In this document: one piece after another, positions 26,039 to 50,447 of the stretch | Layout of the letters: every line of letters begins with the position of its first letter | Position numbering within the stretch: position 1 is the stretch's first letter | NCBI GenBank assembly: GCA_017864995.1 | Contig: GCA_017864995.1_4097.1 | Strand: one strand, 5' to 3' | DNA length: 64,000 nt | DNA from: a phage | Made by a program: the position numbers and the translations under genes | Notes under the pieces: generated by a model | What the model was told of the DNA's origin: nothing | Seen by the model: the letters and a program-made list of their open reading frames with translations, nothing else | The model's database searches: none

Positions 26039-26065
26039 GGGTTGACTTCGGTCAACCCTTTTTTT
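26039..26065 (+). terminator. rho-independent terminator (PeSL-type hairpin without -10 box)
   Basis: gggttgac-TTCG-gtcaaccc followed by TTTTTTT; same hairpin as the terminator-promoter cassettes downstream. Confidence 0.7.
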
Positions 26066-28501: not shown

Positions 28502-28780
28502 ATGTCTTTTACCAAAGAAGAACGTGACCTTATTAAAAAAGCAATCTGGTTTTATGCTAATGAAGGGGAGTGCGATGAAGAAAAAGCACGTGAACTGTGT
28601 AATATCCTTGAGCAGAAACAAGAACTGAAAGTTTATCGTATCCGTGTTTTGGATGACGGGGATCGTATTGTCCTAGCTGAAACAAAAGAAGAAGCAGAAC
28701 AAATCTTCACTGATAAAAACGAAAATCCACATTGGATGGAAGAAGTCTGTGAAGTAAAAAAAGGTACTTATATCGATTGA
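28502..28780 (+). CDS. hypothetical protein
   Basis: 92 aa ORF; stop TGA inside TTGACT of downstream promoter. Confidence 0.6.
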   Translation: MSFTKEERDLIKKAIWFYANEGECDEEKARELCNILEQKQELKVYRIRVLDDGDRIVLAETKEEAEQIFTDKNENPHWMEEVCEVKKGTYID

Positions 28781-28805
28781 CTGTACTGAATAATAGCAGT
28801 ATAAT
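28777..28805 (+). promoter_or_regulatory. early promoter (TTGACT-17-TATAAT)
   Basis: ttgactgtactgaataatagcagtataatgtttatatcaa. Confidence 0.6.
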
Positions 28806-28898: not shown

Positions 28899-29207
28899 AT
28901 GTTTCAAACTAACACTCAAGGTTTTGTAATCATCGATTTGAATCAAAACAGCGGTTATTGGATGAAACCTACTGACGCATGTATGCAGTTTGATTTTTTA
29001 GGTTACAGGATTAGTGTAAGTACTGGTGCTTCTGTACTGCGTGGTGGTTGTATCGTTGAACATCTGGTAACTGATCCAGAAGGTCGTGAGTATGAAATCG
29101 CAGGTTCAGTACAAGATGCCATTATGTTTGTATGTCAGCGTGAAATGAATAGTTCGAATTCAAATGCACTGACTCATGCTCTTTCTCAAGAAGTGGAGGT
29201 TCGTTAA
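28899..29207 (+). CDS. hypothetical protein
   Basis: 102 aa ORF; SD GAGGAA upstream. Confidence 0.6.
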   Translation: MFQTNTQGFVIIDLNQNSGYWMKPTDACMQFDFLGYRISVSTGASVLRGGCIVEHLVTDPEGREYEIAGSVQDAIMFVCQREMNSSNSNALTHALSQEVEVR

Positions 29208-29458
29208 TGAAATATATCGTAGCAGTACTCGTTGCATTTTTACTCACTGCATGTGACGCTTCAACAAAAGAACGCACAAGTGATTTTATTCTCCCTATTG
29301 AATTACAAGAAGCAGGATGTAAGATTTATCGTATGCAAAAGGACGGTGCTGGTGTAACCTTGTATACAGTTTATTGCCCTAATGCAAATACCAGTACTGG
29401 ATACAGCAGCGGTAAAACACGAATCAATACTTCAGTGATTAATGGAGTACAACAATGA
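29207..29458 (+). CDS. putative lipoprotein
   Basis: N-terminus MKYIVAVLVAFLLTAC with lipobox-like LTAC. Confidence 0.6.
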   Translation: MKYIVAVLVAFLLTACDASTKERTSDFILPIELQEAGCKIYRMQKDGAGVTLYTVYCPNANTSTGYSSGKTRINTSVINGVQQ

Positions 29459-29823
29459 GCCTTGATACAACCCGTGCAACAGATTTATTAACTCGTATGA
29501 ATAATGAAGAATTTCTTGCTGAAATAAAGTACAAGCTTGAAAAACTGGCACGAAGTGCTGAAGTAATTGAAGTTGAAGGTCACTTACCAATGGACCAATT
29601 CCATACGTTCAACGAAGATATGGTTTATTATCCAAATGAAATTTGGATTGAGTGGGAGTCATGGACTAACAAAACTCTACGCATTGAAGGTTATTGTGTG
29701 AATTATGAATCTGAACCTGGTGATGTTACAAAAACTCTCTCCATTTGGTGTACAAAAACACATGAACTCGTTGAGGTGAATTTGAATTATATGAAAGGTT
29801 TCCGTTGGGGTGATGTTCAATGA
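29455..29823 (+). CDS. hypothetical protein
   Basis: 122 aa ORF; ATGA overlap. Confidence 0.6.
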   Translation: MSLDTTRATDLLTRMNNEEFLAEIKYKLEKLARSAEVIEVEGHLPMDQFHTFNEDMVYYPNEIWIEWESWTNKTLRIEGYCVNYESEPGDVTKTLSIWCTKTHELVEVNLNYMKGFRWGDVQ

Positions 29824-30095
29824 TTAAAAAACTATTGACAGTTGTCTTTGTATTCTGTACAATGTTTCTTACAGCATGTAATGATGACGGCAGGTTTAGT
29901 GCAAAAGACTTAGTTCGTCAGGATTGTACATTCACAGGTAAGTCTTTTATTAACGAGTATGAGGTATGTACACAATCAGGCCGTATCTGTGGTGGTTGGG
30001 AAAAACGTCAGGAGAGATTGTATGTATATGAATGCCCTGGACATCTCAACAAAGTACTAAGCACACACAAACTTGTTTATGATAAGGTTGAATAA
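29820..30095 (+). CDS. putative lipoprotein (Cys-rich)
   Basis: N-terminus MIKKLLTVVFVFCTMFLTACNDD with lipobox-like LTAC. Confidence 0.6.
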   Translation: MIKKLLTVVFVFCTMFLTACNDDGRFSAKDLVRQDCTFTGKSFINEYEVCTQSGRICGGWEKRQERLYVYECPGHLNKVLSTHKLVYDKVE

Positions 30096-30310
30096 TGACT
30101 ACCAATGAAATGATGCAGGTTATTTGGGATAAAGGTTGTGATATTAAAATCACTAGTACTGATGTTCGTGTATTCAAAACTGAATATATGGAGTACTTGG
30201 ACCTTGATACTTATAATAATATTGTATCAATTGAACACAAAGGTGCAGTACTGGAAACAATTGACGTAGTACTGAAGAAAGCTACCGACCTATTAGGAGC
30301 GGCAGTGTGA
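30095..30310 (+). CDS. hypothetical protein
   Basis: 71 aa ORF; TAATG overlap. Confidence 0.55.
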   Translation: MTTNEMMQVIWDKGCDIKITSTDVRVFKTEYMEYLDLDTYNNIVSIEHKGAVLETIDVVLKKATDLLGAAV

Positions 30311-30453
30311 ATAACAAAGAGTGGGAAGAGTACCGTAAGAAGTGCAGGGAGTTTGATAAAGAACTAACTGGTACAGTGAATGCAGTAATGTGGGTATCTG
30401 TAATTATTGCAGTTCTTGCGTTGGGTGCTATTATTATTAATAAATTATTCTAA
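30307..30453 (+). CDS. hypothetical small C-tail-anchored membrane protein (48 aa)
   Basis: Not in track; GTG start overlapping upstream stop, AGGAG SD; C-terminal hydrophobic segment; weak. Confidence 0.35.
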   Translation: MNNKEWEEYRKKCREFDKELTGTVNAVMWVSVIIAVLALGAIIINKLF

Positions 30454-30463
30454 GGCGAATATC

Positions 30464-30664
30464 ATGTTTACTTTATATCTCGCAGTAGTTCTCACCAATG
30501 GTGAAATCACTCGTACTATTGGTGAAGGTGTATATAAAACACCAGACCAGTGCTACTCTGCTACTCATTGGCCTCGCGATAGTGGGGATGAAACTCGCAC
30601 TGAATTCAAATGCATGAAAGTAAAAGGTGATTTTGTTAACCTTAAGGTTATCGAGGCGAAATAA
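30464..30664 (+). CDS. hypothetical protein
   Basis: Track ORF 30407 trimmed to ATG 30464. Confidence 0.5.
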   Translation: MFTLYLAVVLTNGEITRTIGEGVYKTPDQCYSATHWPRDSGDETRTEFKCMKVKGDFVNLKVIEAK

Positions 30665-31179
30665 TGGATATTAATGAGTTGTTGATCTTATTGTTTAATC
30701 GTGGAAATGATGTAAGACGTTCTGAATATCAAGACAAAATTCACATTGAAACTGATAAATGTTATGGTAAAACAACTCATGAGATTTTGAAGCCAAATGG
30801 CAAACGATATGCCGATGTATGTTTTCATGAACGAAGTGATGGTAGTGAAATAATCAGTACTGAAATTGTGTTTTATGATAGATCCTCGGCAGGATCGTAT
30901 GAAATAGAACTTATATATTGCCCTGGTTCAGAAACACACAATAAACGTCAGATATTATATGATGTTTATTCACCTCCAGGTGTAGCTGAATATTTTGTTA
31001 TTGATTACAGTACTGAAGAAAGTGTGTTTCAACAGAGCTTGATTCATAACTTCCAGTTGAATGATCCAAATGTACCAAAGTTGTTCAAACTACTCGATAC
31101 TATCGATGTTGATTTTGAATTTGTTATGTGCATTAGAACTTCCTTGATCGATGAATTTATGGAACTACTTAATATATGA
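30664..31179 (+). CDS. hypothetical protein, F-Q motif family
   Basis: 171 aa ORF; contains TEESVFQQSLIHNF. Confidence 0.65.
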   Translation: MDINELLILLFNRGNDVRRSEYQDKIHIETDKCYGKTTHEILKPNGKRYADVCFHERSDGSEIISTEIVFYDRSSAGSYEIELIYCPGSETHNKRQILYDVYSPPGVAEYFVIDYSTEESVFQQSLIHNFQLNDPNVPKLFKLLDTIDVDFEFVMCIRTSLIDEFMELLNI

Positions 31180-31397
31180 ATCGTTACTACATTGTGTATG
31201 AGCATGTATCTGAGTTTAATAATGTACGTGGTTATAAGAAAGAAGTACAGAAGATTGATGTATTTGTTCGTGCATTAAGTCCAACACATGCACTATTTAA
31301 ATTGTTTGATGAAGTAACTAAGTACAACACACCAAAAACACAACGCTATATTGAAACAGTACATAGTGTAATACTCACTGAATATGATGGAGAATGA
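31176..31397 (+). CDS. hypothetical protein
   Basis: 73 aa ORF; ATGA overlap. Confidence 0.55.
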   Translation: MNRYYIVYEHVSEFNNVRGYKKEVQKIDVFVRALSPTHALFKLFDEVTKYNTPKTQRYIETVHSVILTEYDGE

Positions 31398-31400
31398 CAA

Positions 31401-31619
31401 ATGAATTTATATCTAGTTGAAGGGTCAGTACAAGTATCCAAGCAAGACGGAGAAGGGTATCGTTTTTCACATGTAGAATATTTTAAGTACGTAGTAAAGG
31501 CCGATGGTCAGTACGACGCAGAAATTCAGGTTGAAGAATCATTCCGTAAGAAGAATGATATTGGTAAATTTGAATACCAAGACTTACAATTCACTGTATG
31601 GCCTAGCATTAATGACTAA
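31401..31619 (+). CDS. hypothetical protein
   Basis: 72 aa ORF. Confidence 0.55.
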   Translation: MNLYLVEGSVQVSKQDGEGYRFSHVEYFKYVVKADGQYDAEIQVEESFRKKNDIGKFEYQDLQFTVWPSIND

Positions 31620-31620
31620 G

Positions 31621-31824
31621 ATGTGGTGGTGTCATGGTGTCTACAATGTCTATGAATATGGTAGATTCAAAATGAGCAGCACCTATGCCAGACGTGTTAA
31701 TGCGAAAAACCAAGTTGATGCTGCTTGTGAGATTGTAGAGTGGTATGCAGAGTTCAATGCAATTGATTTTATGTACGAAATAGTTACAATAAATGTTGTA
31801 CAAATTGACACGTCTTTGATATAA
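31621..31824 (+). CDS. hypothetical protein
   Basis: Track ORF 31504 trimmed to ATG 31621 just after upstream stop; no clear SD. Confidence 0.4.
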   Translation: MWWCHGVYNVYEYGRFKMSSTYARRVNAKNQVDAACEIVEWYAEFNAIDFMYEIVTINVVQIDTSLI

Positions 31825-31860
31825 TAACTACATCAAAAAACAACTGCAACTGAGGATACT

Positions 31861-32523
31861 ATGTTAGTAAATCTTAATTTCATCACTTCTCCTGATTGGG
31901 CATTGCGTGGTGTTTCTTTGAACTTTAAAGAAACTAATTTCGACTACATTGGTGATTGTACTTTAGTTAATGCTACATTTGATCCTCATCATCCTTTTTG
32001 GGCTGAAATTCATGATCCTAATGTAAACAATAGTACATCTGTTATGACTATTGTACAGACGAAACATACAGGTATCCTCGCAGGTTATAGACCAGGACAT
32101 GCGATTGAACACTTCACTGATTATGATGTAGTAGATGAGTATCCAATGATCCATGAAGATGGAAGTTTATACACGTCAGAAGACTTCCGTGCTATCTTTA
32201 ATAGTACTGATGACATTCTACCAAGTGGTCGTCCACGCCCTGAGTCTTATCTTATGCACCCGTCTTATGGTGTAGCAGATACGCTTGAACAGATTTTGAC
32301 GAAGTACAAGAACCTTATTGAAGGTCCAGAAGAAATTGTCATGTGCTATCATCCAGTCCTGAAGTCTGACCAACCAGAGAGTGGTGGGTGGCGTTGGCAT
32401 AAGAATGGTGAGTACATCGGTACTAAGCGTAGTAAAGAACGCTTTGAGTACTTGTATGATGAGCCAGATGTTGAGGTTGTTTTATGTTATAATTTTCTTA
32501 AGGTGAAAAAGAAATGTATCTAG
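31861..32523 (+). CDS. hypothetical protein
   Basis: 220 aa ORF; SD GAGGA upstream. Confidence 0.7.
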   Translation: MLVNLNFITSPDWALRGVSLNFKETNFDYIGDCTLVNATFDPHHPFWAEIHDPNVNNSTSVMTIVQTKHTGILAGYRPGHAIEHFTDYDVVDEYPMIHEDGSLYTSEDFRAIFNSTDDILPSGRPRPESYLMHPSYGVADTLEQILTKYKNLIEGPEEIVMCYHPVLKSDQPESGGWRWHKNGEYIGTKRSKERFEYLYDEPDVEVVLCYNFLKVKKKCI

Positions 32524-32756
32524 TATTGAGTTTTGTAGTTGCATTATTGTTTATGTTCTACCCTACACTAGTAGCAGTAGCCACTAAACGAAAGCTGGTG
32601 GATATCACTACTGTATTCTTGCTAAACGTGGCACTCGTTCTAGTGTCTATTATCATTCCCGTGAGCTTTACGGTTATTGATATGGCATCTGTATTACTAT
32701 TCGTCTTCAGTTATCTTATGCTTATTGAAGAAAAACCTGTTGACAAACGTTTGTAG
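32514..32756 (+). CDS. small membrane protein
   Basis: 80 aa ORF with two hydrophobic segments. Confidence 0.5.
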   Translation: MYLVLSFVVALLFMFYPTLVAVATKRKLVDITTVFLLNVALVLVSIIIPVSFTVIDMASVLLFVFSYLMLIEEKPVDKRL

Positions 32757-32767
32757 TACTGTATAAT
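32740..32767 (+). promoter_or_regulatory. early promoter (TTGACA-16-TATAAT) with palindromic spacer
   Basis: ttgacaaacgtttgtagtactgtataatgg; spacer contains 12-bp palindrome acaaacgtttgt. Confidence 0.55.
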
Positions 32768-32814
32768 GGTTCTTGTAGTCTGAAACTTAACACTTAAACT
32801 TGAGGATATAAAAC

Positions 32815-33141
32815 ATGTTATCAGTTCTAATTTCAATTCCTGCTCTAATTCTGTTATGGGTTATGGTTTTCGAATTCTTCATTAAAGACGAAACCGAGCG
32901 TGATGAGTTTCGTGAGTTGTTTATGCTAGACTCACCTATTGCACGAATCTTCTTTGTTGTAGTACTTATTTCAGTACTGTCATGGTTAGTAAGTTTTGTA
33001 TTACCAATTGGACCATTTGTTTCAATTATGAATTTAGTTGAGAATATTGTTGGTATTGTGTGGTTTACTAATGCATTGTTTGCTGGTAAAGTTTCCATTT
33101 GGTTTGATATCTTGAAAGATAAACTAACTAGTAAGAAGTAA
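32815..33141 (+). CDS. polytopic membrane protein
   Basis: 108 aa ORF with 3 hydrophobic segments; SD GAGGA upstream. Confidence 0.6.
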   Translation: MLSVLISIPALILLWVMVFEFFIKDETERDEFRELFMLDSPIARIFFVVVLISVLSWLVSFVLPIGPFVSIMNLVENIVGIVWFTNALFAGKVSIWFDILKDKLTSKK

Positions 33142-33219
33142 CGTTCAAAAAGTCTCTAATAGTATTAAATACTTCTGTACAAATAATATGTGCAGAAGTA
33201 TTGCTCGTTAGAGGTTATA

Positions 33220-33585
33220 ATGAAAAAATATATAAGAATGATAATGGTGTTTGTAGTATTCATGCTTTATTCAAGGTTCAGTACAGCCGTACCTGCTTAC
33301 CTTGATTGTATGGGAAACGATGGAACATGGCATGTACTTTCTAATGACCCACAAAATGGAAACAATATTGTCGTAGATAATGAGGTTTACCGTTTCAGGG
33401 CCGAGAGTTTGATTGGGAATAAAAAGGTATCGACATATAAATCAGATGCTGGTATAATAGCAAATGTAATATTGATAGTGGACCCCAAGACAAAGGATGG
33501 GGATATTTACATAGTCATTTATCAAGATTCGTCGAACAAACGCGATCAGGATATTGATAAATTGAATATTCATTGTGAACTTTAA
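33220..33585 (+). CDS. small secreted protein (Cys-containing family)
   Basis: Track ORF 33190 trimmed to ATG 33220 (SD GAGG); signal-peptide-like N-terminus; VVDNEVYRF segment resembles YIDGEVYNF in 33976. Confidence 0.6.
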   Translation: MKKYIRMIMVFVVFMLYSRFSTAVPAYLDCMGNDGTWHVLSNDPQNGNNIVVDNEVYRFRAESLIGNKKVSTYKSDAGIIANVILIVDPKTKDGDIYIVIYQDSSNKRDQDIDKLNIHCEL

Positions 33586-33595
33586 GGTATAACAA

Positions 33596-33979
33596 ATGAT
33601 AAACGATGTAATGCTTTATGTATTAATTACTCCGATTCTTATTAACTCAGTAATAACTATTTCAATGGCATTATTTGGTATAGTAGCAATTGTTTATGCT
33701 GTTAGTACTGGGAAGTATACTTTAATTAGTAAGGTTGATTCATGGTTCGCATCTGATAGTGTACCATATTCAGCTAGTATGATTACGATTGGTATTCTAA
33801 TCGTTGCATTTACACTGCACTGTATTGGTTTTATTAATACAAGTATTTTTTCAGTTTTTATTGGTCTATCATTATATCCATCACTTTGGTACTTGATTTA
33901 TGTAATCGATGTTTGGTATAATAACTACAAGCAGTACAAAGTGAAGAAATCCATTTTATCCAAAGGAAACAAATCATGA
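33596..33979 (+). CDS. polytopic membrane protein
   Basis: 127 aa ORF with 4 hydrophobic segments. Confidence 0.6.
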   Translation: MINDVMLYVLITPILINSVITISMALFGIVAIVYAVSTGKYTLISKVDSWFASDSVPYSASMITIGILIVAFTLHCIGFINTSIFSVFIGLSLYPSLWYLIYVIDVWYNNYKQYKVKKSILSKGNKS

Positions 33980-34326
33980 AAGTAATTTTGTTTTTTGTTT
34001 GTATGATTATATGTGGTATGTCTTATGCAGAACCATTACCTGGACTAGTCTGTACTGAAGGTGATATTAAACACATTTACCAAGGTGATAGCGATGACCA
34101 TACTATCGTTTATATCGATGGTGAAGTGTATAATTTTGTTAAAGAACATACTGTAGGTGACATTAGTTTTACGCAGTACTCGAACGATACTGATCCCAAT
34201 ATGCTTGCATTTCTTCAAGTTGATGTATATGAAGAAAGTAATGGCGAACAGTATGTTAAACTTGTGATGATGCGTAAGGCAGCAAAACAGGCAACATTCG
34301 GTGGCTTGTGTAAATATGAGGACTAA
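33976..34326 (+). CDS. small secreted protein (Cys-containing family)
   Basis: 116 aa ORF; N-terminal signal-peptide-like MKVILFFVCMIICGMSYAEP. Confidence 0.6.
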   Translation: MKVILFFVCMIICGMSYAEPLPGLVCTEGDIKHIYQGDSDDHTIVYIDGEVYNFVKEHTVGDISFTQYSNDTDPNMLAFLQVDVYEESNGEQYVKLVMMRKAAKQATFGGLCKYED

Positions 34327-34330
34327 ACAT

Positions 34331-34522
34331 ATGTTGATTTATCAATGTGATAACATTCGTGTTATGCAGCATCCCTACTTACAAATCTTTGATGTGCAGC
34401 AGTATATGGAAGGTGATGATCCAAGAACCTATGGTCGTAAGTATGATTACTTCACTGTAAAGCAGTGTCATAACATCAAAGAAGTACGACAATTAGTTCA
34501 AGAACTTCAAAATAAAGGTTGA
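34331..34522 (+). CDS. hypothetical small protein
   Basis: Track ORF 34301 trimmed to ATG 34331 (SD GAGGA). Confidence 0.45.
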   Translation: MLIYQCDNIRVMQHPYLQIFDVQQYMEGDDPRTYGRKYDYFTVKQCHNIKEVRQLVQELQNKG

Positions 34523-34548
34523 CTTCGGTCAACCTTTTTTGTTATAAT
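34517..34548 (+). promoter_or_regulatory. terminator-promoter cassette (PeSL-like)
   Basis: Hairpin ggttgac-TTCG-gtcaacc with T-run; TTGACT inside the stem as -35, TATAAT 18 nt downstream. Confidence 0.7.
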
Positions 34549-34577
34549 TATTTCATCAACTACTGGGGATTTTAATT

Positions 34578-35018
34578 ATGTACGTATATCGTTTTGAACT
34601 TAAATTCAGTTATATTGAACCTAACTTAGATCCAGCAAAAACAGTAGGGCCGTTCGCACGGTACTCTTCACGATACAGTACGAAAAATGGATTTGACCGT
34701 TTGTGCATGACCACGCCTTCGCAATTCCAACCAGAACCAACTGAAGATGGAATCTATTCAATCAAACGTGGCTGGGCATTTGGCTGTCAGAGTTTGAATG
34801 ATTTGTTTAAGTTCTTTACTATGGACTTGGGTAAATTACATCGTGCAGGGTTTGCTGTATCAGTATATGAAGTTCCTGATAATCATGTTGACATTGGTCG
34901 TAGTCAGGTTCAGTACTATTGTGGTAGTGCCAATCTGGTTCGTATCATGTCAGTGAGAGAAGCAAAGGATGAGTACCGCCAAAGTAAAAGAGTAATACAT
35001 GAGGCTGTATATGGATAA
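34578..35018 (+). CDS. hypothetical protein
   Basis: 146 aa ORF downstream of cassette. Confidence 0.65.
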   Translation: MYVYRFELKFSYIEPNLDPAKTVGPFARYSSRYSTKNGFDRLCMTTPSQFQPEPTEDGIYSIKRGWAFGCQSLNDLFKFFTMDLGKLHRAGFAVSVYEVPDNHVDIGRSQVQYYCGSANLVRIMSVREAKDEYRQSKRVIHEAVYG

Positions 35019-35355
35019 GACTCAAATAGAATTAAAAAAATTTGTATCGTTTTATCTACCCAATGACCCACGTTGTACACAATATGATGTTGCATATTAC
35101 AATGCATTGACTACACAGTTAATGAAGAAATTCAAACAATGTTTGACTGTATTCAATGATGATGGTAGACGTAGATATAGAATCATTCCAATGAATGATG
35201 AAAACGATAACTACTTTGACTTTGATGTTGTTTTTAGAGCATACAGTGATGATAGAATAAAATTAAATTATGAGCAAATAATGCTTGACCTGAGTGTTAT
35301 CTGTGTTATAATTACTCACATAGCCGAACTTGATGGTTTAAAAGAATGGTATTAA
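35011..35355 (+). CDS. hypothetical protein
   Basis: Track ORF 34999 trimmed to ATG 35011 overlapping upstream stop. Confidence 0.55.
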   Translation: MDKTQIELKKFVSFYLPNDPRCTQYDVAYYNALTTQLMKKFKQCLTVFNDDGRRRYRIIPMNDENDNYFDFDVVFRAYSDDRIKLNYEQIMLDLSVICVIITHIAELDGLKEWY

Positions 35356-35369
35356 CTTAGAGGATAATC

Positions 35370-35636
35370 ATGAAGCTTAAATTACAATACAATGGTTTTA
35401 CTTTGCGTAACGACACTGAGTTTGTCAATCGTTCACCAGGTGCTGAGTTGTTTTTGCGAGAGATGAACATTCCTTTCGTCATCACTACTGTTGGTGACCG
35501 TGAAGTGCTACAATACGCAGAGCATCCAGTTATTGATGTTCCGTGGTATTCTGAGCATATGTATATGGATATGGCCCGTCGCTACGACTGTAAGTTCGTA
35601 GTTGAAGGTGATAAAATTACAGTCCAATTCAAATAA
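35370..35636 (+). CDS. hypothetical protein
   Basis: 88 aa ORF; SD GAGGA upstream. Confidence 0.6.
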   Translation: MKLKLQYNGFTLRNDTEFVNRSPGAELFLREMNIPFVITTVGDREVLQYAEHPVIDVPWYSEHMYMDMARRYDCKFVVEGDKITVQFK

Positions 35637-35647
35637 GGTAACTTAAA

Positions 35648-35941
35648 ATGATCAGTACTTCAGTAAATGCAAGCATCGTGGCAGACGTAGAAATGGTTAA
35701 AGAATGTACAGACGAAACCCTTCGCAACATGTACATCAATGATTTGATTTCAGAGTACGGAAGTCGTGGTGTTCATGAGTTTGTTCGCCTAAGCGGTGAA
35801 TTGATGAAGAATCGCATTCGTATGAAGCTTAATGTGCATCCAAAAGCATGGGCGTTTACAATGAAGTACGCTGAAGATATTGTTGAGTTGCGTCGCAATG
35901 ATGTGTATAATCGTTTACACAATGGTACATTAAAGGACTAA
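35648..35941 (+). CDS. hypothetical protein
   Basis: 97 aa ORF. Confidence 0.6.
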   Translation: MISTSVNASIVADVEMVKECTDETLRNMYINDLISEYGSRGVHEFVRLSGELMKNRIRMKLNVHPKAWAFTMKYAEDIVELRRNDVYNRLHNGTLKD

Positions 35942-35947
35942 ATTATA

Positions 35948-35978
35948 GGAATCCGTAAAAGGATTCCTGTTCTTGTTT
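35948..35978 (+). terminator. putative terminator
   Basis: Hairpin ggaatcc-gtaaaa-ggattcc followed by T-rich tract. Confidence 0.5.
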
Positions 35979-35991
35979 ATAAGGTAATAAA

Positions 35992-36216
35992 ATGAAATAT
36001 CTAGTACTAGTACTGCTATTCTTGAGTACTGTTGTATGTGCTAAACCAAAGTATCATGTAGTGTGTATCAACGAGATGGAAGGGTATACTGAAACATATA
36101 AGAACCATATTGTTGAAGTTGCAGCCCAAGGTTCCTATGGGACCATCATCTTCCTTAAGAACAATGTGATTGTTCAGTACAAAAAAGATTCAAATTGTAA
36201 AGTGACTAAAAATTGA
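35992..36216 (+). CDS. small secreted protein
   Basis: 74 aa ORF; signal-peptide-like N-terminus MKYLVLVLLFLSTVVCA. Confidence 0.55.
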   Translation: MKYLVLVLLFLSTVVCAKPKYHVVCINEMEGYTETYKNHIVEVAAQGSYGTIIFLKNNVIVQYKKDSNCKVTKN

Positions 36217-36232
36217 TCTAGATCAATTTTTC
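36211..36232 (+). terminator. putative terminator (perfect palindrome plus T-run)
   Basis: aattgatctagatcaatt followed by TTTT; overlaps stop codon of upstream gene. Confidence 0.5.
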
Positions 36233-36286
36233 AGATATTCTCTGTAAATAATAGCAGTACAGAACATTATTTTACGGAGGTGTAAT

Positions 36287-36523
36287 ATGGAAACTATAAT
36301 CATCATATGTGCGTTGTTTGCATTTTTGGTAATGTGGTCACCAACATTCATTGCATATAAAATGAAAAATAAAAATGCAGAAGCAATTATGTACGTAAAC
36401 TTATGTTGCATACTAACTTATGGAATACTTTTATTCTTTACTGAATTTACATTAATCCCAGTAGTAGTTTGTTCATCAATGTTTATTTGGTTGTTTCTGC
36501 TTTATGAATCTATTAAAAAATAA
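36287..36523 (+). CDS. small membrane protein
   Basis: 78 aa ORF with 2-3 hydrophobic segments; SD GGAGG upstream. Confidence 0.55.
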   Translation: METIIIICALFAFLVMWSPTFIAYKMKNKNAEAIMYVNLCCILTYGILLFFTEFTLIPVVVCSSMFIWLFLLYESIKK

Positions 36524-36577
36524 AAGATATAGGGTTGGTAATATGCCATCCCTTTTACTTTATGTGGGGTTTAATTA

Positions 36578-37150
36578 ATGAATAGAAAAGGTAAGTTCAA
36601 AGTATCAAAGAAGAACAAAAGTTCTAGATTTAGACCTATAACTTTAACTTTTAAGGCTAAAGAAGAATTAACTGCACTTAGTAAAAAGATAATTTCATCT
36701 AAGATTAAAGTATCATACGTAAATTCGGTAAAATTTCAGAAGGTTAAACCACAAGACAAACTCATTTCACTTATATTTAAACGTAATGATTTTGAGATAT
36801 TAGTAGATGATTATAGAGCCTATAATGCTGGATTCATTCATGTCACTTGTAATACCGAACTAACTGAGTTGGAACATTTGACATGTATCATAAGTGTAGA
36901 TAACGGTGTGGTGAAGTACAATTTTTTACATTTTACCAATATCAATAATGGAATGGGTGTACAATCCAGACCTATAGTACCTACATGTGATGTGACTAAT
37001 TTAGCAAAGCTCAATGAAGAAGAATATTTTCAAGAAAGCATTGTAACTGAGCATTTAGATGCTATAATAGCAACTTACAAAGAATGCATATGGGTTTTGA
37101 ATGCGATAAAGCCCAAATTGTGTTTAATGAATGTCGTTCGTGATTTATAA
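36578..37150 (+). CDS. hypothetical protein, F-Q motif family
   Basis: 190 aa ORF; contains NEEEYFQESIVTEH. Confidence 0.65.
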   Translation: MNRKGKFKVSKKNKSSRFRPITLTFKAKEELTALSKKIISSKIKVSYVNSVKFQKVKPQDKLISLIFKRNDFEILVDDYRAYNAGFIHVTCNTELTELEHLTCIISVDNGVVKYNFLHFTNINNGMGVQSRPIVPTCDVTNLAKLNEEEYFQESIVTEHLDAIIATYKECIWVLNAIKPKLCLMNVVRDL

Positions 37151-37163
37151 CTGGAGATGAAGT

Positions 37164-37607
37164 ATGGGTTGGATTAACGTTAATAGCATTGAGCTAAATG
37201 AGCAAGACATATTTGCCTTTGTTAATTTGGTAGAGAACATTGCTATTAAAGGTCGTCTGTTTAGTTCATCGGACGGTAAAAAATGGATCTCTCTTATGAA
37301 CGACAATGGCGAGATTTATGACGTTATGCAACTACCTCATTGGGCTTATAAGAATACATCTGATGATGTGATGGCTGCTGTTATGCGTGAGTTTGAGAAG
37401 CTGCCAGGTGGTGATATTAAGAACATCGTATTCAATGCAGAACGCATGAACTACACACCAGAGCAGCTTCAACAGTTGGCAATTGCTGCCTATCAAGCTG
37501 CCATTAAGAAACCTGAATGTGTGATATTAAAGTACACACCGAACTTGAAGTTAACACTAGAAGATATGGATTCCTTTATCTTCAGTTCAGAACTTAAACA
37601 GTACTGA
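37164..37607 (+). CDS. hypothetical protein
   Basis: 147 aa ORF; SD GGAG upstream. Confidence 0.65.
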   Translation: MGWINVNSIELNEQDIFAFVNLVENIAIKGRLFSSSDGKKWISLMNDNGEIYDVMQLPHWAYKNTSDDVMAAVMREFEKLPGGDIKNIVFNAERMNYTPEQLQQLAIAAYQAAIKKPECVILKYTPNLKLTLEDMDSFIFSSELKQY

Positions 37608-37614
37608 TTTGACT

Positions 37615-37644
37615 TTGGAACAACCATTTCATATGTGATATAAT
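37615..37644 (+). promoter_or_regulatory. possible promoter (weak -35, TATAAT -10)
   Basis: gatataat at about 37637 with TTGACT/TTGGAA upstream at non-ideal spacing. Confidence 0.3.
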
Positions 37645-37718
37645 CTTAAGTGTCTGTTGAAATAAACAGCACATGAAGTATAAATATTAAAGTAATTTAT
37701 CTCTTTAAGGAGTATGAA

Positions 37719-38102
37719 ATGGTTGATAAATGGAATAAGAAAGATCCATCGCATGATGTGGATATTTCTGGAATTGATAATGCACATAAGCATAAGTATC
37801 TTGATTCACTAGGTCTACTAAAGCCTGACCAAAGTCTTGCACATGATCGTCCTTCACGTGAAAAAGCTTTCAGTCTAGAATCACTAGGCCATGAATTGAA
37901 TCGTGTATTTGAAGATCATCCAATTTATGTACGTGATATCATTGAGAAACTTAAAGTGACTCCTAAAGAGCACTTCAAGGCAACAGTACACGCAGCATTC
38001 CGTGCACTACATGAAGCACTAAAGAAAACTCATAACCTTCGCAAGATTCATGATGACATCGTGAACTCTATTGAAGGCGAAAAACATAAGTTTAAAAAAT
38101 AA
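37719..38102 (+). CDS. hypothetical basic protein
   Basis: 127 aa ORF; shares Y-x-[DN]-SLGLL motif with the 503-aa protein at 38950. Confidence 0.6.
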   Translation: MVDKWNKKDPSHDVDISGIDNAHKHKYLDSLGLLKPDQSLAHDRPSREKAFSLESLGHELNRVFEDHPIYVRDIIEKLKVTPKEHFKATVHAAFRALHEALKKTHNLRKIHDDIVNSIEGEKHKFKK

Positions 38103-38108
38103 TTAAAA

Positions 38109-38142
38109 GGGGTTGACTTCAGTCAGCCCTTTGTCGTATAAT
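38109..38142 (+). promoter_or_regulatory. terminator-promoter cassette (PeSL-like)
   Basis: gggttgac-ttca-gtcagccc hairpin; TTGACT at 38113, TATAAT at 38137 (18-nt spacer). Confidence 0.65.
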
Positions 38143-38189
38143 ATTTTCATCAAGTGATACAAAATACAAACAACGTGAGGTATTAAATT

Positions 38190-38303
38190 ATGCAAGGTAC
38201 TAAATTCATCATCGCTGCCCTAATCGCTGCTGTTGTAGTGGGTACAGTATGTTATTCAATTGACACCTATATCAATACACCTAGTGTTGAACAAACCAAA
38301 TAA
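38190..38303 (+). CDS. hypothetical small membrane protein (37 aa)
   Basis: Not in track; MQGTKFIIAALIAAVVVGTVCY; SD GAGG upstream; weak. Confidence 0.35.
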   Translation: MQGTKFIIAALIAAVVVGTVCYSIDTYINTPSVEQTK

Positions 38304-38311
38304 GGGATATC

Positions 38312-38575
38312 ATGGCTGAAACATTATCACTATATGCGTTAGTACTGTTATTTGTCGGATTTCTTCCTGCACTCATTACAGCCATTCGTGTTGTTAAACA
38401 TGAAGCTGCATTGATTGTATGTAGTATTGGGTCGAACATTCTATTGTATTTCTTTTTGACAAATACTATTGTACTGTTTGCTTTCTTTATCATGATTCTG
38501 TGGGTACTTGTAATTCTCGGATTCTTCATTTGGTCATTGGTTGATCCTAAGAAAAAAACAGGAGAAGTGAAATGA
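38312..38575 (+). CDS. polytopic membrane protein
   Basis: 87 aa ORF with 3 hydrophobic segments. Confidence 0.55.
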   Translation: MAETLSLYALVLLFVGFLPALITAIRVVKHEAALIVCSIGSNILLYFFLTNTIVLFAFFIMILWVLVILGFFIWSLVDPKKKTGEVK

Positions 38576-38868
38576 AATTAATTATAGCAATGATGATGTG
38601 TTTGGCTTTCCCTGTACTGGCTACTCCTAATCTGGACTGCACACTGTTGCGTTCAGATGGTGACACACTTGAAATCAACACATATGAACTCTTTGGTCCA
38701 AGTGTAGTGGAGAATGAAACCACCTACAATTTCAAAGCTATTGACTTTGAAGGTAATGTTCCAGTACTAACTACAATGACTATTGACAAAACTACTTTAC
38801 TCGGACGAATCACCACACAACGTGGAGAAAGTAAAACATTCACAGCGAAAGCTGACTGTAACTACTAA
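38572..38868 (+). CDS. small secreted protein (Cys-containing family)
   Basis: 98 aa ORF; N-terminal signal-peptide-like MKLIIAMMMCLAFPVLATP. Confidence 0.6.
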   Translation: MKLIIAMMMCLAFPVLATPNLDCTLLRSDGDTLEINTYELFGPSVVENETTYNFKAIDFEGNVPVLTTMTIDKTTLLGRITTQRGESKTFTAKADCNY

Positions 38869-38890
38869 TGGTATAGTACAGTGAAAATAG

Positions 38891-38921
38891 GGTTGACTTC
38901 GGTCAACCTTTTCTTTATACT
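38891..38921 (+). promoter_or_regulatory. terminator-promoter cassette (PeSL-like)
   Basis: ggttgac-TTCG-gtcaacc hairpin with T-run; TTGACT at 38893, TATACT 17 nt downstream. Confidence 0.65.
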
Positions 38922-38949
38922 ATAAATATAGTCATAGAGAATAAACAAT

Positions 38950-40461
38950 ATGAAATCTATGGAGAGAAATCAAATGCCAGGTCAATTTACTGATAAAAAT
39001 GGCGGGAACATGGCAGGTCACTCTGATAAATGGAGTGAACGCAATCGTCGTCAAAATAGCTACCAAGCAGGACAGGGGTCACGTGGTTCACGTAATCAAG
39101 GGACAGGTTTAGCTGGTAAGGCAAACGCAGAAGCAGGTGAAGTTAAGAGTACTGAGAACATGACTGAGCTAGAAAAGCTACGTTATGTTAACTCATTAGG
39201 TCTTCTTAACGCAACACAGAAACAACGCCTTGCTGATATGGAACGTGCTGAGAAAGAACAAGCAGTTCCTAAAGAAGAACCAAAACCAGAAGCTCCTAAA
39301 GCAGCTAACCCTGTTAAAGAGTTATCTGATAACTTAGGTAAGATCTTTGCTAACAAACCACAGTTGATTCAGGGTATTGTCAAAGCACTACAGGCAGTTC
39401 CTAAAGAAGAACTCAAAGGTAAAGCACAAGCTGTACTTGATGCAATGAAAGGTAATAAGAGCACTGAACCCACTGAAGTATTCAGTACTATCATGCGTGC
39501 ACTTGAAGGTACACACAAAGAAGATTCCAAAGAACCTGAACAGGGTGAAGCAAGTCTTGATGGTATTCTTAAAACTTTTGATAGTATTGGTAAAGCAGAC
39601 CGTGCTAATGCCCAGCAAGTCAAGAATGTACTGGCTAAACTTGAAAACCGTTTAGAAGGTAAAGACGATAAGGTTAAGCTCGTATCAGATGCAGTTAACA
39701 GTGCACTTAAATCTTATGTACAAGGTGAGAAAAGTCGCTTCGTAACAGCTATGGATGCTGCATTCAACACTATGAAAAAGTATGAAGCAGAACATGGTGA
39801 GAAGGTAACACCAGATGGTTATCTACTACGTAAAGATGAAGAAGGTGCAGTTGAACAGAAAGATGTTGAGCCTGAGCAAGAAGATCTACCTGATACCGTT
39901 GATATGGATGGATACATTCATCGTCCTGAGATGGAAGAGTTTGGGTCAGATAAAGAAGGTTTTGAACATGCAATGGCAGTATATAAAGCATTAGTTAAAA
40001 ATCCAGATTATGCTAACCGTTTTGTTGACGAGTTTGATAGTGCATGGAATAACTACAAAGAGAAAGGTTATGACTTCCCTGCTGAAGCTGCATTCTTTGA
40101 ACTTGGTAAACTATTAGCTAAACATGGAATTGACGTTGGTTCATCTGATTCTGACGGTATGGAAGAAGAACATCTTGAAATGACTGATAAATCAATTCAT
40201 GAACTTCAAAAGTTAATGATGTGGATATCCGAGATTGGTAAAAAAGCAGGTGCTGATAGTAAAAGTATCAACAAAAATATTAGTTGGATTAAAGATAATG
40301 TTGGTAACAATGCTCGTAAACTTCAAAAGGCTTGGGCTGATTTAGTAAATGGTGCAGATGATGTTGACATTGAATCACCAGAAGCATATGAGTATGCACT
40401 AACTACACTTGATAACTCATTCAAAGAGTACGACCGTGGTGTTGGAAAGGATAAAAAATAA
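38950..40461 (+). CDS. hypothetical charged protein (503 aa)
   Basis: Long K/E/A-rich ORF flanked by cassettes; contains LRYVNSLGLL motif shared with 37719. Confidence 0.75.
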   Translation: MKSMERNQMPGQFTDKNGGNMAGHSDKWSERNRRQNSYQAGQGSRGSRNQGTGLAGKANAEAGEVKSTENMTELEKLRYVNSLGLLNATQKQRLADMERAEKEQAVPKEEPKPEAPKAANPVKELSDNLGKIFANKPQLIQGIVKALQAVPKEELKGKAQAVLDAMKGNKSTEPTEVFSTIMRALEGTHKEDSKEPEQGEASLDGILKTFDSIGKADRANAQQVKNVLAKLENRLEGKDDKVKLVSDAVNSALKSYVQGEKSRFVTAMDAAFNTMKKYEAEHGEKVTPDGYLLRKDEEGAVEQKDVEPEQEDLPDTVDMDGYIHRPEMEEFGSDKEGFEHAMAVYKALVKNPDYANRFVDEFDSAWNNYKEKGYDFPAEAAFFELGKLLAKHGIDVGSSDSDGMEEEHLEMTDKSIHELQKLMMWISEIGKKAGADSKSINKNISWIKDNVGNNARKLQKAWADLVNGADDVDIESPEAYEYALTTLDNSFKEYDRGVGKDKK

Positions 40462-40470
40462 ACATTTAAA

Positions 40471-40503
40471 AGGTTGACTTCGGTCAACCTTTTTTTGTAA
40501 ATA
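40471..40503 (+). promoter_or_regulatory. terminator-promoter cassette (PeSL-like, weak -10)
   Basis: aggttgac-TTCG-gtcaacct hairpin with TTTTTTT; -10-like TAAATA. Confidence 0.55.
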
Positions 40504-40532
40504 TTGTAGAGGGTTTTATAAGAGGTAATGCA

Positions 40533-40784
40533 ATGTTTAAATATGTTTTATTTTCACTTGTATTGTTTACTGATATAGTTTATAGTACTGAATACCAGTG
40601 CTCCATTGCTAGACAGGAGTTTAGAAACGGTGAGTTCTATACCAAGTCTTACACTAGAGGATTGGTACATGACAATAATAAAACTATAGGGTTCAATGCA
40701 TTTGATAACAAAGATCGATATACGTCTGGAATACTATCTGAACGTAAGTCGGATATACTAGGTATCGAGCGTGAATTCCGGTGA
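40533..40784 (+). CDS. small secreted protein (Cys-containing family)
   Basis: 83 aa ORF; signal-peptide-like N-terminus. Confidence 0.55.
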   Translation: MFKYVLFSLVLFTDIVYSTEYQCSIARQEFRNGEFYTKSYTRGLVHDNNKTIGFNAFDNKDRYTSGILSERKSDILGIEREFR

Positions 40785-40794
40785 CACGGTTGCA

Positions 40795-41145
40795 ATGTGT
40801 AATGATATTGAGAGTACTAAGAAAGTATATACTAATGGTGAAAATACTTTTAGATTCCACAATCTTACTACCAATGAAAGTTTATACTTCTACAACTGTA
40901 AAGAGTTCATTAAACCTGTGGATAACTCATGTGATATGCCGGAGCCAAAAACTGCTGTATGTGAGGAACCACAATCTAAAGCTGACAAAGATTCAAAAGA
41001 TAAGAAAGACAAAGCTGACAAATCGGATAAAAAAGAAAACAAAAAGAAAGCTAAAGATGATAAAGATAAAAAGTCCCCTAAGCCAAATCCATTTGAAAAG
41101 CCAAAGAATGAAAAGCCAAAACCAGACATGACATGTAAAATATAA
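40795..41145 (+). CDS. hypothetical protein with K/D-rich low-complexity tail
   Basis: Track ORF 40771 trimmed to ATG 40795; C-terminal KADKDSKDKKDKADKSDKKENKKKAKDDKDKK. Confidence 0.5.
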   Translation: MCNDIESTKKVYTNGENTFRFHNLTTNESLYFYNCKEFIKPVDNSCDMPEPKTAVCEEPQSKADKDSKDKKDKADKSDKKENKKKAKDDKDKKSPKPNPFEKPKNEKPKPDMTCKI

Positions 41146-41152
41146 AAGAAAA

Positions 41153-41185
41153 GGGTTGACTTCGGTCGGCCCTTTTTGCTATAAT
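41153..41185 (+). promoter_or_regulatory. terminator-promoter cassette (PeSL-like)
   Basis: gggttgac-TTCG-gtcggccc, TTTTT, TATAAT at 41180, conserved leader catttcatcaactactggagg. Confidence 0.7.
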
Positions 41186-41211
41186 CATTTCATCAACTAC
41201 TGGAGGCAAAC

Positions 41212-41625
41212 ATGTTAAAAGTTATTTTCCGTTCTATCAGTTCATTACTTCTTATGATTAGTTCAGTTTGTTATGCAAATGAAGTATCTGATTTATTTGA
41301 GAAGAATTACCCAACTGCACAAGAGATGGGTGTTTTAAAATGCAAGCTAACTTCGTACAACATCATCGGCAGTAAACTTGTACTGGAACATGAACGTAGT
41401 ACACCAATCCCTCTAGTAGAAGAAGGTAGTACCTTTAGCTTCAAGTACGGGGTGAATGTAACATCTGGTGTAATGAACAATGTTGATGCAGAGACTGGTT
41501 CAACATGGAGTACTAGCGGTAAAGATGTGTTTCATCGTATGCGTGAAAATGGTAAACTGAAGTACGTATATGAAAGTTCATTCATGAAACGTGTATTCAT
41601 TATAAAAAATTGTGTACCAGCATAA
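41212..41625 (+). CDS. secreted hypothetical protein
   Basis: 137 aa ORF; signal-peptide-like N-terminus ending CYANEV. Confidence 0.6.
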   Translation: MLKVIFRSISSLLLMISSVCYANEVSDLFEKNYPTAQEMGVLKCKLTSYNIIGSKLVLEHERSTPIPLVEEGSTFSFKYGVNVTSGVMNNVDAETGSTWSTSGKDVFHRMRENGKLKYVYESSFMKRVFIIKNCVPA

Positions 41626-41636
41626 GGAACAACATC

Positions 41637-41912
41637 ATGCGTTCATTTGAAAACTTAATCGGTAAACTTCGCTTACAAGAAATTGAAGCTGATGTGAAGG
41701 AATTATCTGAAACTAAGAGTTACATTCATTTAGATGAACTGTTTATTAAGTACGGTGAGATTGGTTTTAAGTCATTATTTGTTTTTGTCATGAAGGTGCA
41801 TAGTTTAAAGTACTTTGATTTGAGTTCAAAAGACGGACAACCAAATCTGTATTACATGTATTATCTTAAGAACATAGACGAAGCTAATACATTATTCTTA
41901 GAATATATGTAG
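41637..41912 (+). CDS. hypothetical protein
   Basis: Track ORF 41610 trimmed to ATG 41637 (SD AAGGAA). Confidence 0.55.
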   Translation: MRSFENLIGKLRLQEIEADVKELSETKSYIHLDELFIKYGEIGFKSLFVFVMKVHSLKYFDLSSKDGQPNLYYMYYLKNIDEANTLFLEYM

Positions 41913-41923
41913 GGGTAAAAAAA

Positions 41924-42262
41924 ATGGAACAACATTTTGAATTAATTAATAAGGTATCATTTTATGTAGTATCGTTAATTTGGGTGTATTACATGTTTTG
42001 TTACATTATTGCATTCTTCCGATACACAACCTTGTATCAACGCATATACTACGATGCACCCATTTCATTTATGATGTTCTGTGCATGTACGTGGGGGATA
42101 ATTGAAGCACTGGTATGTGGATATAGTACTGACGAATTAAATCTCGTATCGGGGTTGACATTACTAACAATTGCCATTATGATAGCTACTGTTCCGATAT
42201 TTTTGCTCTTTAAACTGCTTCATCGTATTGATGAGTGGCGTGATAAAATCCCTGAAAAGTAA
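41924..42262 (+). CDS. small polytopic membrane protein, basic-C-tail family (copy A1)
   Basis: 112 aa, 3 hydrophobic segments, C-terminus RIDEWRDKIPEK. Confidence 0.6.
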   Translation: MEQHFELINKVSFYVVSLIWVYYMFCYIIAFFRYTTLYQRIYYDAPISFMMFCACTWGIIEALVCGYSTDELNLVSGLTLLTIAIMIATVPIFLLFKLLHRIDEWRDKIPEK

Positions 42263-42271
42263 GGATTGATA

Positions 42272-42613
42272 ATGATTTTCTACACTAATGCTTTTGCTTA
42301 TGCTATTGCATCAATCTACATTGTGTACTTCTTATTTGGTGGAGTACTGTACTTCTTTAAGTACAAAACATTGTTTAACCGAATGTATCCAAATCATCCA
42401 ATTGTTGTAGTACTTTTGATTATTTCTGTTGCTCACATCATTGTAGAAACAATAATGGGTATTAGTGCAGTACATTACAGTCTAGGTACTATTGTGATTA
42501 TTACTATGATCATCGCATACATTTTAGTAATGGGTTTTGGTTTATTTGGAAATGTAGCAATGAAATTGTATAATCGAATCAAAACATTACGTGATAATCT
42601 ACCGGAGCGTTGA
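42272..42613 (+). CDS. small polytopic membrane protein, basic-C-tail family (copy A2)
   Basis: ATG 42272 with SD AAGGA; C-terminus RIKTLRDNLPER. Confidence 0.6.
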   Translation: MIFYTNAFAYAIASIYIVYFLFGGVLYFFKYKTLFNRMYPNHPIVVVLLIISVAHIIVETIMGISAVHYSLGTIVIITMIIAYILVMGFGLFGNVAMKLYNRIKTLRDNLPER

Positions 42614-42614
42614 G

Positions 42615-50446: not shown

Positions 50447-50447
50447 C

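Follow-up and report, generated by a model that had tools for sequence, protein, structure and literature searches.

Small, apparently exported proteins, among them a previously undescribed family of predicted beta-barrels, cluster in an early-looking gene block of an Asteriusvirus jumbo coliphage

This work concerns eight small open reading frames (ORFs) located at positions 29207-41625 of a stretch of phage DNA of 64,000 nucleotides (contig GCA_017864995.1_4097.1, hereafter the window), which a preliminary description made from the letters alone had flagged as secreted or lipoprotein-like and as candidates for immunity or exclusion functions. The source of the window is an Asteriusvirus jumbo coliphage (121Q/PBECO4-like), phage BF17 being 99.5% identical. 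Bases 29000-42000 were aligned over their full length with BF17, fEgEco12, vB_Ec-M-J and other Escherichia Asteriusvirus with 99.2-99.5% identity, and the identity to the type phages 121Q and PBECO4 is ~86%. From position 1 to ~52 kb the window contains short, densely packed genes on the + strand, together with six tRNA genes and a phage sigma-factor gene. The eight flagged starts are those of real and conserved genes, since an ORF begins at all of them and all are annotated coding sequences (CDSs) in near-identical phages. They are as follows (a slash marks the predicted cleavage site, and Cys numbering refers to the mature part):

29207..29458, + strand: lipoprotein gene, 83-aa precursor with LLTA/C; mature start C-D-A-S plus two further conserved Cys
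29820..30095, + strand: lipoprotein gene, 91-aa precursor with FLTA/C; phrog_31263
33220..33585, + strand: barrel A, 121 aa; mature part 98 aa; Cys7 and Cys96
33976..34326, + strand: barrel B (the modelled protein), 116 aa; mature part 98 aa; Cys8 and Cys94
35992..36216, + strand: 74 aa; mature part 57 aa; Cys8 and Cys52; own family PHROG_31284
38572..38868, + strand: barrel C, 98 aa; mature part 81 aa; Cys6 and Cys79
40533..41145, + strand: two-gene cassette, 40533 (83 aa, signal-like, one Cys) and 40795 (116 aa, five Cys, without signal peptide)
41212..41625, + strand: 137 aa; mature part 115 aa; Cys22 and Cys112; own family

The N-termini of all eight ORFs (8/8) resemble signal peptides, with a basic start followed by an uncharged hydrophobic core, and none of the proteins contains a transmembrane (TM) segment beyond the N-terminus. 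Genes 29207 and 29820 do carry the two L-T-A-C lipoboxes that had been claimed, and the six non-lipoproteins present sites that agree with the -3/-1 rule (SYA/E, STA/V, VLA/T, VCA/K, VYS/T and CYA/N). Among orthologs, the hydrophobic N-termini keep their character while the sequence drifts, as in the orthologs of 41212 (MLKVIFRSISSLLLMISSVCYA/NE, MKKTILSVIGAVLFMVTSVASA/AT and MKKIFLSIILVLFSFNVYA/AD), as signal peptides would be expected to do. The clustering is also real: a strict signal rule selected 9/31 genes inside 29207-41625 versus 2/100 outside (Fisher p=3.3e-5), the doubtful matches being 30407 on the inside, probably a mis-called start, and both of those outside. Exported proteins were called by means of home-made heuristics combined with ortholog conservation, and predicted export to the envelope is well supported in these terms, being far more certain than the functional reading given below taken as a whole. 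It must be considered that the six non-lipoproteins might instead keep their N-termini as uncleaved signal anchors, in which case they would be bound to the inner membrane and not free in the periplasm, as could be suggested by cores of fairly great length and strong hydrophobicity (33220 and 33976 are examples). In all six, however, conserved small residues at -3 and -1 stand right after the core and are followed by the first conserved mature residues, and we regard such anchoring as very unlikely; the folded domain would face the periplasm either way, so that the functional reading would be little changed.

The mature parts contain an even number of conserved cysteines, with the exception of 40533, which has a single Cys. 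A cysteine framework shared by descent among the eight ORFs was not found; what five of them (33220, 33976, 35992, 38572 and 41212) do share is a two-Cys layout, with a Cys close to either end of the mature part, that only two further genes among the 131 in the window display. Because the same one-Cys-per-end layout is seen in T4 Spackle and T5 Llp, it is read as a convergent stabilisation of small periplasmic proteins and not as common descent. Regarding the local similarity that had been noticed between VVDNEVYRF, YIDGEVYNF and ETTYNFKA, these motifs do share columns in a 30-sequence alignment, and the homology is limited to 33220, 33976 and 38572. BLASTP of the mature parts gave E=1e-5 for 33220 against 33976 and E=0.007 for 33220 against 38572. 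By profile-profile comparison (hhalign), this barrel family was unrelated to 35992, 40533, 40795, 41212, 29207 and 29820, which were also mutually unrelated, and a single superfamily for the eight ORFs was thereby ruled out. The eight exported genes belong to six unrelated sequence families. The observation that prompted this work was real yet over-unified, and its functional interpretation appears reasonable, although putative.

Both cysteines of the barrel family (Cys8 and Cys94 of mature 33976) are invariant in the 30-sequence alignment, and the Tyr of the VYRF/VYNF/TYNF motif is nearly so. A hidden Markov model (HMM) built from the three barrels found orthologs in 121Q and RaK2 as its only significant matches, and a profile search of 5.8 billion proteins yielded 29 clusters, all of them unnamed and without any Pfam domain. 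An exhaustive HMMER search of 1.84 billion representatives added a few small proteins. It also returned giant proteins of 3445 and 4280 aa, matched in as many as 25 stretches, which were discarded as cadherin/Big, FG-GAP and flagellin repeat proteins because the matched stretch is a generic 'DG-x-x-I-V-V-x-G' hairpin. No solved relative of the family was found with sequence profiles. AlphaFold2 modelling of mature 33976 with the family alignment predicted an all-beta protein of eight strands (predicted local distance difference test [pLDDT] 86.7; predicted template modelling score [pTM] 0.76), with Cys8 in the first strand and Cys94 in the eighth, from which a disulfide bond stapling the seam of the barrel is likely. 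Foldseek comparison of this model with the PDB gave weak calycin-type matches, headed by Treponema pallidum Tp0751 (E=0.012, TM-score 0.56, root-mean-square deviation 4.6 Å, 17% identity) and followed by lipocalins and avidins, and comparison with BFVD returned the family's own orthologs and nothing characterised. The predicted barrels resemble these proteins in being eight-stranded, antiparallel, of ~100 residues and exported, but calycins have no sequence relation to them and the likely end-to-end seam disulfide is specific to the phage family. Barrel C is accessory, since it is absent from 121Q and present in JNE01. Taken together, it is well supported that the three barrels represent a previously undescribed family, restricted to Rak2-like phages, with two invariant cysteines and ~80-100 residues.

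The exported genes are interspersed with genes for small polytopic membrane proteins (32514, 32815, 33596, 36287, 38190 and 38312, followed by those in 41924-42959), of which the first three form a conserved module with barrels A and B. The features concerned are:

32514..32756, + strand: 80 aa, small polytopic membrane protein, first gene of the module, conserved as far as RaK2
32740-32767: sigma-70 promoter with 12/12 consensus matches, ahead of 32815
32815..33141, + strand: 108-aa membrane protein, PHROG_31401 (function unknown)
33596..33979, + strand: 127 aa, 4 TM, between barrel genes A and B
36287..36523, + strand: 78 aa, 3 TM, adjoining 35992; accessory, absent from 121Q
38190..38575, + strand: two genes, 38190 (37 aa, 1 TM) and 38312 (87 aa, 3 TM), directly upstream of barrel C; 38312 only in the clade of the window

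The order 32514, 32815, barrel A, 33596, barrel B is kept in 121Q, ph0011, A4, JNE01 and Klebsiella phage RaK2, so that the module is collinear across genera, from Asteriusvirus to Alcyoneusvirus/RaK2, down to ~20-40% identity. Distant metagenomic relatives keep the membrane protein with the Imm-like motif, barrel A, the 4-TM protein and barrel B. This motif (P-T-L-V-A...K-R-K) lies at the end of the first TM segment of 32514 and is similar to the beginning of the T4 Imm domain; in its general form, P-x-F/L-I/V-A followed by basic residues, it is common to 32514, 36287 and T4 Imm. Membership of 32514 and 36287 in the Imm family was nevertheless rejected and only the resemblance was retained, as the PF14373 (Imm_superinfect) scores were below the cut-off of 27.9 bits (15.7 for 36287 and 13.4 for the RaK2 ortholog of 32514, versus 58.2 for T4 Imm itself) and the second half of the domain is missing; hhalign gave probabilities of at most 12% for the membrane proteins against Imm. 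As a speculation of rather low probability, 32514-34326 might encode an undescribed multi-component envelope system in which the barrels would be interchangeable binders that dock on the membrane proteins of the module and recognise either the machinery with which competitor phages enter or a host envelope component, new specificities being gained through paralog duplication, as in barrel C, and allele replacement at the stem-loop elements described below.

The two lipoproteins differ in their distribution. Gene 29207 belongs to PHROG_902 (E=5e-13), which contains lipoproteins of ~80 aa from Felixounavirus, Vequintavirinae and Vibrio, Aeromonas and Acinetobacter phages, all labelled 'hypothetical', and which is widespread in virulent phages of Gram-negative bacteria; elsewhere, its genes are found among early/replication genes and outside lysis cassettes. 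All aligned members of the family of 29207 (37/37) share the lipobox Cys, two further Cys and one Pro, and 29207, like most members, starts with C-D, that is, with Asp at +2. In the Lol pathway of E. coli, Asp at +2 leads to retention of a lipoprotein in the inner membrane. The AlphaFold2 model of 29207 was of moderate quality (pLDDT 68.5). A precomputed PF16225 tag is attached to every member of this family, and it is not reproduced by hmmscan against Pfam-A at E<=10. For its part, 29820 occurs only in Asteriusvirus and a small number of related jumbo phages, and its mature part has four conserved Cys, enough for two disulfides, all of which (4/4) are kept in the 36%-identical ortholog of JNE01. 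Both lipoproteins are conserved with respect to 121Q, at 92% and 98% identity. A promoter precedes the gene run 28899-29207-29455-29820:

28777..28805, + strand: sigma-70-type promoter, 11/12 consensus matches

The possibility that the lipoproteins are o-spanins was rejected, as the spanins of 121Q lie in another part of the genome, the PHROG_902 genes of other phages lie outside lysis cassettes and the gene between the two lipoproteins (29455-29823) encodes no TM segment. Neither lipoprotein gene is annotated in phAPEC6 (locus L018, 208-456 and 824-1096), and the 4-TM gene, although present, is uncalled in one metagenomic contig (L015, 4315-4663); since small envelope genes are thus uncalled in some records, presence or absence judged on annotation only is misleading.

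Among the other exported genes, 35992 is present in only some relatives, and 41212 is restricted to Asteriusvirus, with 40% identity to 121Q. The 40533/40795 cassette is found only in the clades of 121Q and of the window, being absent from JNE01, A4 and ph0011, and the tail of the 40795 product is of low complexity, rich in Lys, Asp and Pro, and ends in ...DMTCKI. The odd numbers of Cys in the two proteins and the conserved frame, with the same junction and +1 frame relation in 121Q, had raised the idea that both are recoded into one protein. This was discarded, as a plain TGA is followed by 10 nucleotides (nt) and an ATG whose Shine-Dalgarno sequence is weak, and the junction lacks a slippery site; 40533 and 40795 are probably two translationally coupled genes.

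With respect to transcription, sites with at least 11/12 matches to the sigma-70 consensus were sought in the whole window. There were 35 on the + strand and none on the - strand, versus 2.6 expected, and they lie within window positions 1-48000, in intergenic gaps ahead of gene groups. A similar promoter-dense block around the sigma-factor gene of phage CBB was read by its authors as the early host-takeover region (PMC5259590). Judging from these promoters, the block is presumably transcribed early by the host RNA polymerase. In addition, the sequence GGTTGACTTCGGTCAACC occurs in eight copies, all on the + strand, versus 0.19 expected. These copies are 18-nt cores with the consensus AAAAGGGTTGACTTCGGTCAGCCCTTTTTGcTATAAT, starting at 26040, 34517, 38111, 38891, 40472, 41154, 45778 and 47846, and each of them folds into a stem-loop followed by a T-run; the stem contains TTGACT, and TATAAT lies 18 nt downstream. 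They resemble the promoter-early stem-loops (PeSLs) of T4-type phages, and the five among the genes studied are:

34517..34534, + strand: PeSL-like hairpin, downstream of the conserved module
38111..38128, + strand: PeSL-like hairpin, ahead of the 38190-38312-38572 cassette
38891..38908, + strand: PeSL-like hairpin, after barrel C
40472..40489, + strand: PeSL-like hairpin, ahead of the 40533/40795 cassette
41154..41171, + strand: PeSL-like hairpin, ahead of 41212

PeSLs mediate cassette shuffling in the hyperplastic regions of T4-type phages (PMC2839356, PMC4122927). The elements of the window have the same composite nature as those of T4-type phages (an intrinsic terminator plus a sigma-70 early promoter) and are likewise repeated between small early genes at the borders of indels and recombination events, but differ from them in belonging to a Rak2-like jumbo phage, in having their own consensus, given above, and in placing the -35 box inside the stem. 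No earlier description of PeSL-like elements in the Rak2-like lineage was found in the literature searched, which was not exhaustive.

The position of these elements agrees with the pattern of gene gain, loss and exchange. The hairpins at 38111 and 38891 bracket 38190-38312-38572, of which 121Q lacks the last two genes, and those at 40472 and 41154 bracket 40533/40795. Identity to 121Q is 93-99% in the flanking genes, 43-78% in the genes of the module and 40-66% in 35992, 40533 and 41212, and barrel A is nearer to JNE01 than to 121Q, the opposite of its neighbours. In phage A4 (locus L007, 10345-10620, compared with window positions 34150-34420), a divergent barrel B allele of its own is followed by a PeSL-like element, by the last 135 nt of the allele of the window and by downstream DNA that is ~99% identical; the remnant of the window-type allele is annotated as a small CDS, A4_205. 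The recombination breakpoint falls within the 33976 gene. Allele replacement is directly evidenced by this arrangement. Positive selection was rejected as the source of the divergence: the ratio of nonsynonymous to synonymous substitution rates (dN/dS) was 0.1-0.35 throughout, indicating purifying selection on all genes, dS was saturated, and the divergence corresponds to old alleles. It is therefore strongly supported that the accessory members are exchanged between lineages as old, divergent alleles in PeSL-bracketed cassettes.

The same evidence could be taken to mean that the cluster has no common function and is a by-product of PeSL-mediated shuffling of unrelated small early genes, each doing different things and some of them little. 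The six unrelated families among eight ORFs, their patchy presence among relatives, the PeSL-like elements at cassette borders together with the recombination junction, and the many other membrane-protein paralogs of the block would all be accommodated in this way. We nevertheless consider it rather unlikely, given the strong enrichment of signal-peptide genes (p=3e-5), the five-gene module that is collinear across genera and the purifying selection acting on every gene.

Names suggesting a function have been given to several of these genes in public records. In GenBank, two records give names of the 'Cor' or 'lytic conversion lipoprotein' type to 29207, 29820 and 40533, PP777464 being the one that labels 40533. 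T5 Llp (PDB 8A60_B and 7QJF_A) and 29207 are indeed alike in being small lipoproteins (~60-70 aa when mature) of virulent phages with their own promoter and a Cys pair besides the lipidated Cys. Llp, however, has Ser at +2, consistent with sorting to the outer membrane, where 29207 has Asp, and llp adjoins the gene of the receptor-binding protein, which 29207 does not. BLASTP gave no alignment of 29207 with Llp at E<=100, and phmmer against a 12-sequence set gave E>0.1. The 29207 model had 31 PDB matches at E<=10 that included neither 8A60_B nor 7QJF_A, a negative that is weak owing to the moderate quality of the model. The Cor family PHROG_1119 matched 29207 with E=9e-4 over residues 1-49 and 35992 with E=0.022 over residues 1-50, in both cases including the signal peptide, and PHROG_902 was a far better match for 29207. 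Unlike lipoproteins of the Llp/Cor type, 40533 has no lipobox. The labels 'lytic conversion lipoprotein', 'Cor' and 'immunity to superinfection' were thus not supported by the sequence and fold tests.

A further likeness is found with T4 Spackle (Sp, gp61.3) and Imm, which are also early genes of a large virulent myovirus, Spackle being a soluble periplasmic protein of ~75-100 aa that has a signal peptide and a Cys close to either end. The likeness extends to the pair, as small polytopic inner-membrane proteins also stand alongside the exported ones here and the Imm-like motif is present in the first TM segment of 32514 and 36287. With phmmer, however, all eight ORFs gave E>0.1 against Spackle, and the barrel model is all-beta, Spackle being absent among the 50 best PDB Foldseek matches shown. 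The fold of Spackle is helical.

A reading as virion proteins, suggested by the label of OQ708376 on the ortholog of 33976, was also rejected, as none of the exported proteins appears in the virion proteome of phAPEC6, from which the orthologs gp047c, gp040c and gp034c-032c are absent, with the reservation that small proteins can escape mass spectrometry. The only proteins of the region in that proteome are gp035c and gp037c, the orthologs of 38950-40461 and 37719-38102, respectively, so that two virion-associated orthologs are encoded in the middle of an early-looking block. The former gene encodes a 503-aa protein rich in Lys and Glu that is mis-labelled 'chromosome segregation protein' in one record.

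In view of the above, one presumably early and fast-shuffling stretch encodes eight or more small envelope-targeted proteins, whose probable effect is a modification of the infected cell's envelope. The mechanism that we propose is that, soon after infection, these proteins would be exported to the periplasm and undergo oxidative folding there, after which they would bind envelope components as stable modules, in some cases together with the adjacent membrane proteins, in such a way that the envelope of the infected cell would be closed or protected during the long latent period of the jumbo phage. The most likely mode would be superinfection exclusion, through the blocking of receptors, of the peptidoglycan-piercing step or of the DNA entry of competitors. 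T5 Llp, T4 Spackle and T4 Imm act by such blocking, although the proteins of the window are not members of those families. Exclusion is favoured because of the early timing, the allele swapping with patchy presence and a design like that of Llp, Spackle and Imm. We put forward this reading as a whole, that of early exported envelope proteins that seal or protect the cell mostly via superinfection exclusion, as a serious but still tentative possibility; the role in exclusion, taken by itself, is plausible and somewhat less certain.

Several points weigh against this reading and must be taken into account. No significant sequence similarity to Llp, Cor, Spackle or Imm was observed, nor any fold match to Llp, and no functional data on these genes were found in the literature searched. 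Hyperplastic regions gather unrelated genes, for which a single shared function is not required. The early timing is inferred solely from promoter consensus, and the export calls are based on heuristics, so that some N-termini could be uncleaved signal anchors. Moreover, dN/dS was below 0.4, with no direct signal of positive selection, and the conservation of the lipoproteins at 92-98% fits a housekeeping role better than an arms race.

An alternative to exclusion is that the proteins are inhibitors of, or shields against, enzymes or defences acting on the envelope, such as peptidoglycan hydrolases, proteases, periplasmic nucleases, colicins or membrane-based abortive-infection sensors, by which the cell would be kept intact until lysis, the entry of other phages not being the target as such. 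Small, disulfide-stabilised, beta-rich periplasmic proteins are the format of known proteinaceous enzyme inhibitors, the calycin-like topology is in keeping with it, early promoters stand ahead of the genes, and Rak2-like virions carry baseplate proteins with lysozyme domains (phAPEC6 gp241; CBB). Nevertheless, scans of the eight ORFs with Pfam, NCBIfam and PADLOC gave nothing above threshold, neither MliC/PliC-type lysozyme inhibitors (no match in Pfam/NCBIfam at E<=1) nor Ivy nor any other inhibitor family, no ORF matched defence, anti-defence or spanin families, and no inhibitor appeared among the Foldseek matches. We assign to inhibition a fairly low probability, bearing in mind that it overlaps heavily with the Spackle-type branch of the exclusion reading, from which it is computationally inseparable.

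The control of lysis timing, with the proteins as antiholins or lysis-inhibition components that would sense the periplasm and delay holin triggering in the manner of T4 RI, was considered as well. Jumbo phages have long latent periods that need a tight control of lysis, periplasmic proteins are here paired with small membrane proteins, and mutants in T4 sp show lysis phenotypes too, according to annotation text. The lysis genes of 121Q lie elsewhere, however, with the spanins gp511/gp512 at ~245 kb (Kongari et al. 2018 supplement) and the endolysin gp532, and no similarity to RI or holins was found in PHROGs or Pfam. Several members are, moreover, accessory and absent from close relatives, which would be unexpected for core lysis control, and this role seems very unlikely to us.

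Other genes of the window deserve mention. Those at 41924, 42266 and 42615 are clear 3-TM paralogs (PHROG_19285; E=3e-12 and 8.5e-7), and seven genes at 48744-51183 show weak similarity both among themselves and to 41924 (E=1e-3 to 1e-2); 41924-42959 and 48744-51183, along with 44454-44705, are thus arrays of 3-TM proteins of ~112-123 aa that form a large, divergent paralog family. On the - strand, positions 52000-64000 contain an array of paralogs of ~370-400 aa annotated as chromosome/DNA condensation (RCC1-like) proteins, several of whose orthologs in phAPEC6 (gp003-gp010, gp549 and gp551) are virion-associated. The HNH endonuclease gene at 27131-27925 has no counterpart at that position in A4 and JNE01, and a protein-kinase gene that is located 3' of the 41212 ortholog in 121Q (locus L006, 13124-13798), phAPEC6 and ph0011 is not present in the window. 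Both differences are further indels of the same hyperplastic block.

Among the phages considered as candidates for therapy are jumbo phages, in which over 80% of the genes lack a known function. The analysis corrects labels that are spreading in GenBank for the genes studied here ('lytic conversion lipoprotein', 'Cor', 'immunity to superinfection' and 'structural protein'), to which the sequences give no support. If the proposed reading is true, the control that these proteins exert over what enters or damages the infected cell would shape the competition between phages in cocktails and would account for part of the hyperplastic gene content of these phages, and the barrel family would constitute a new, small and stable scaffold for binding in the periplasm.

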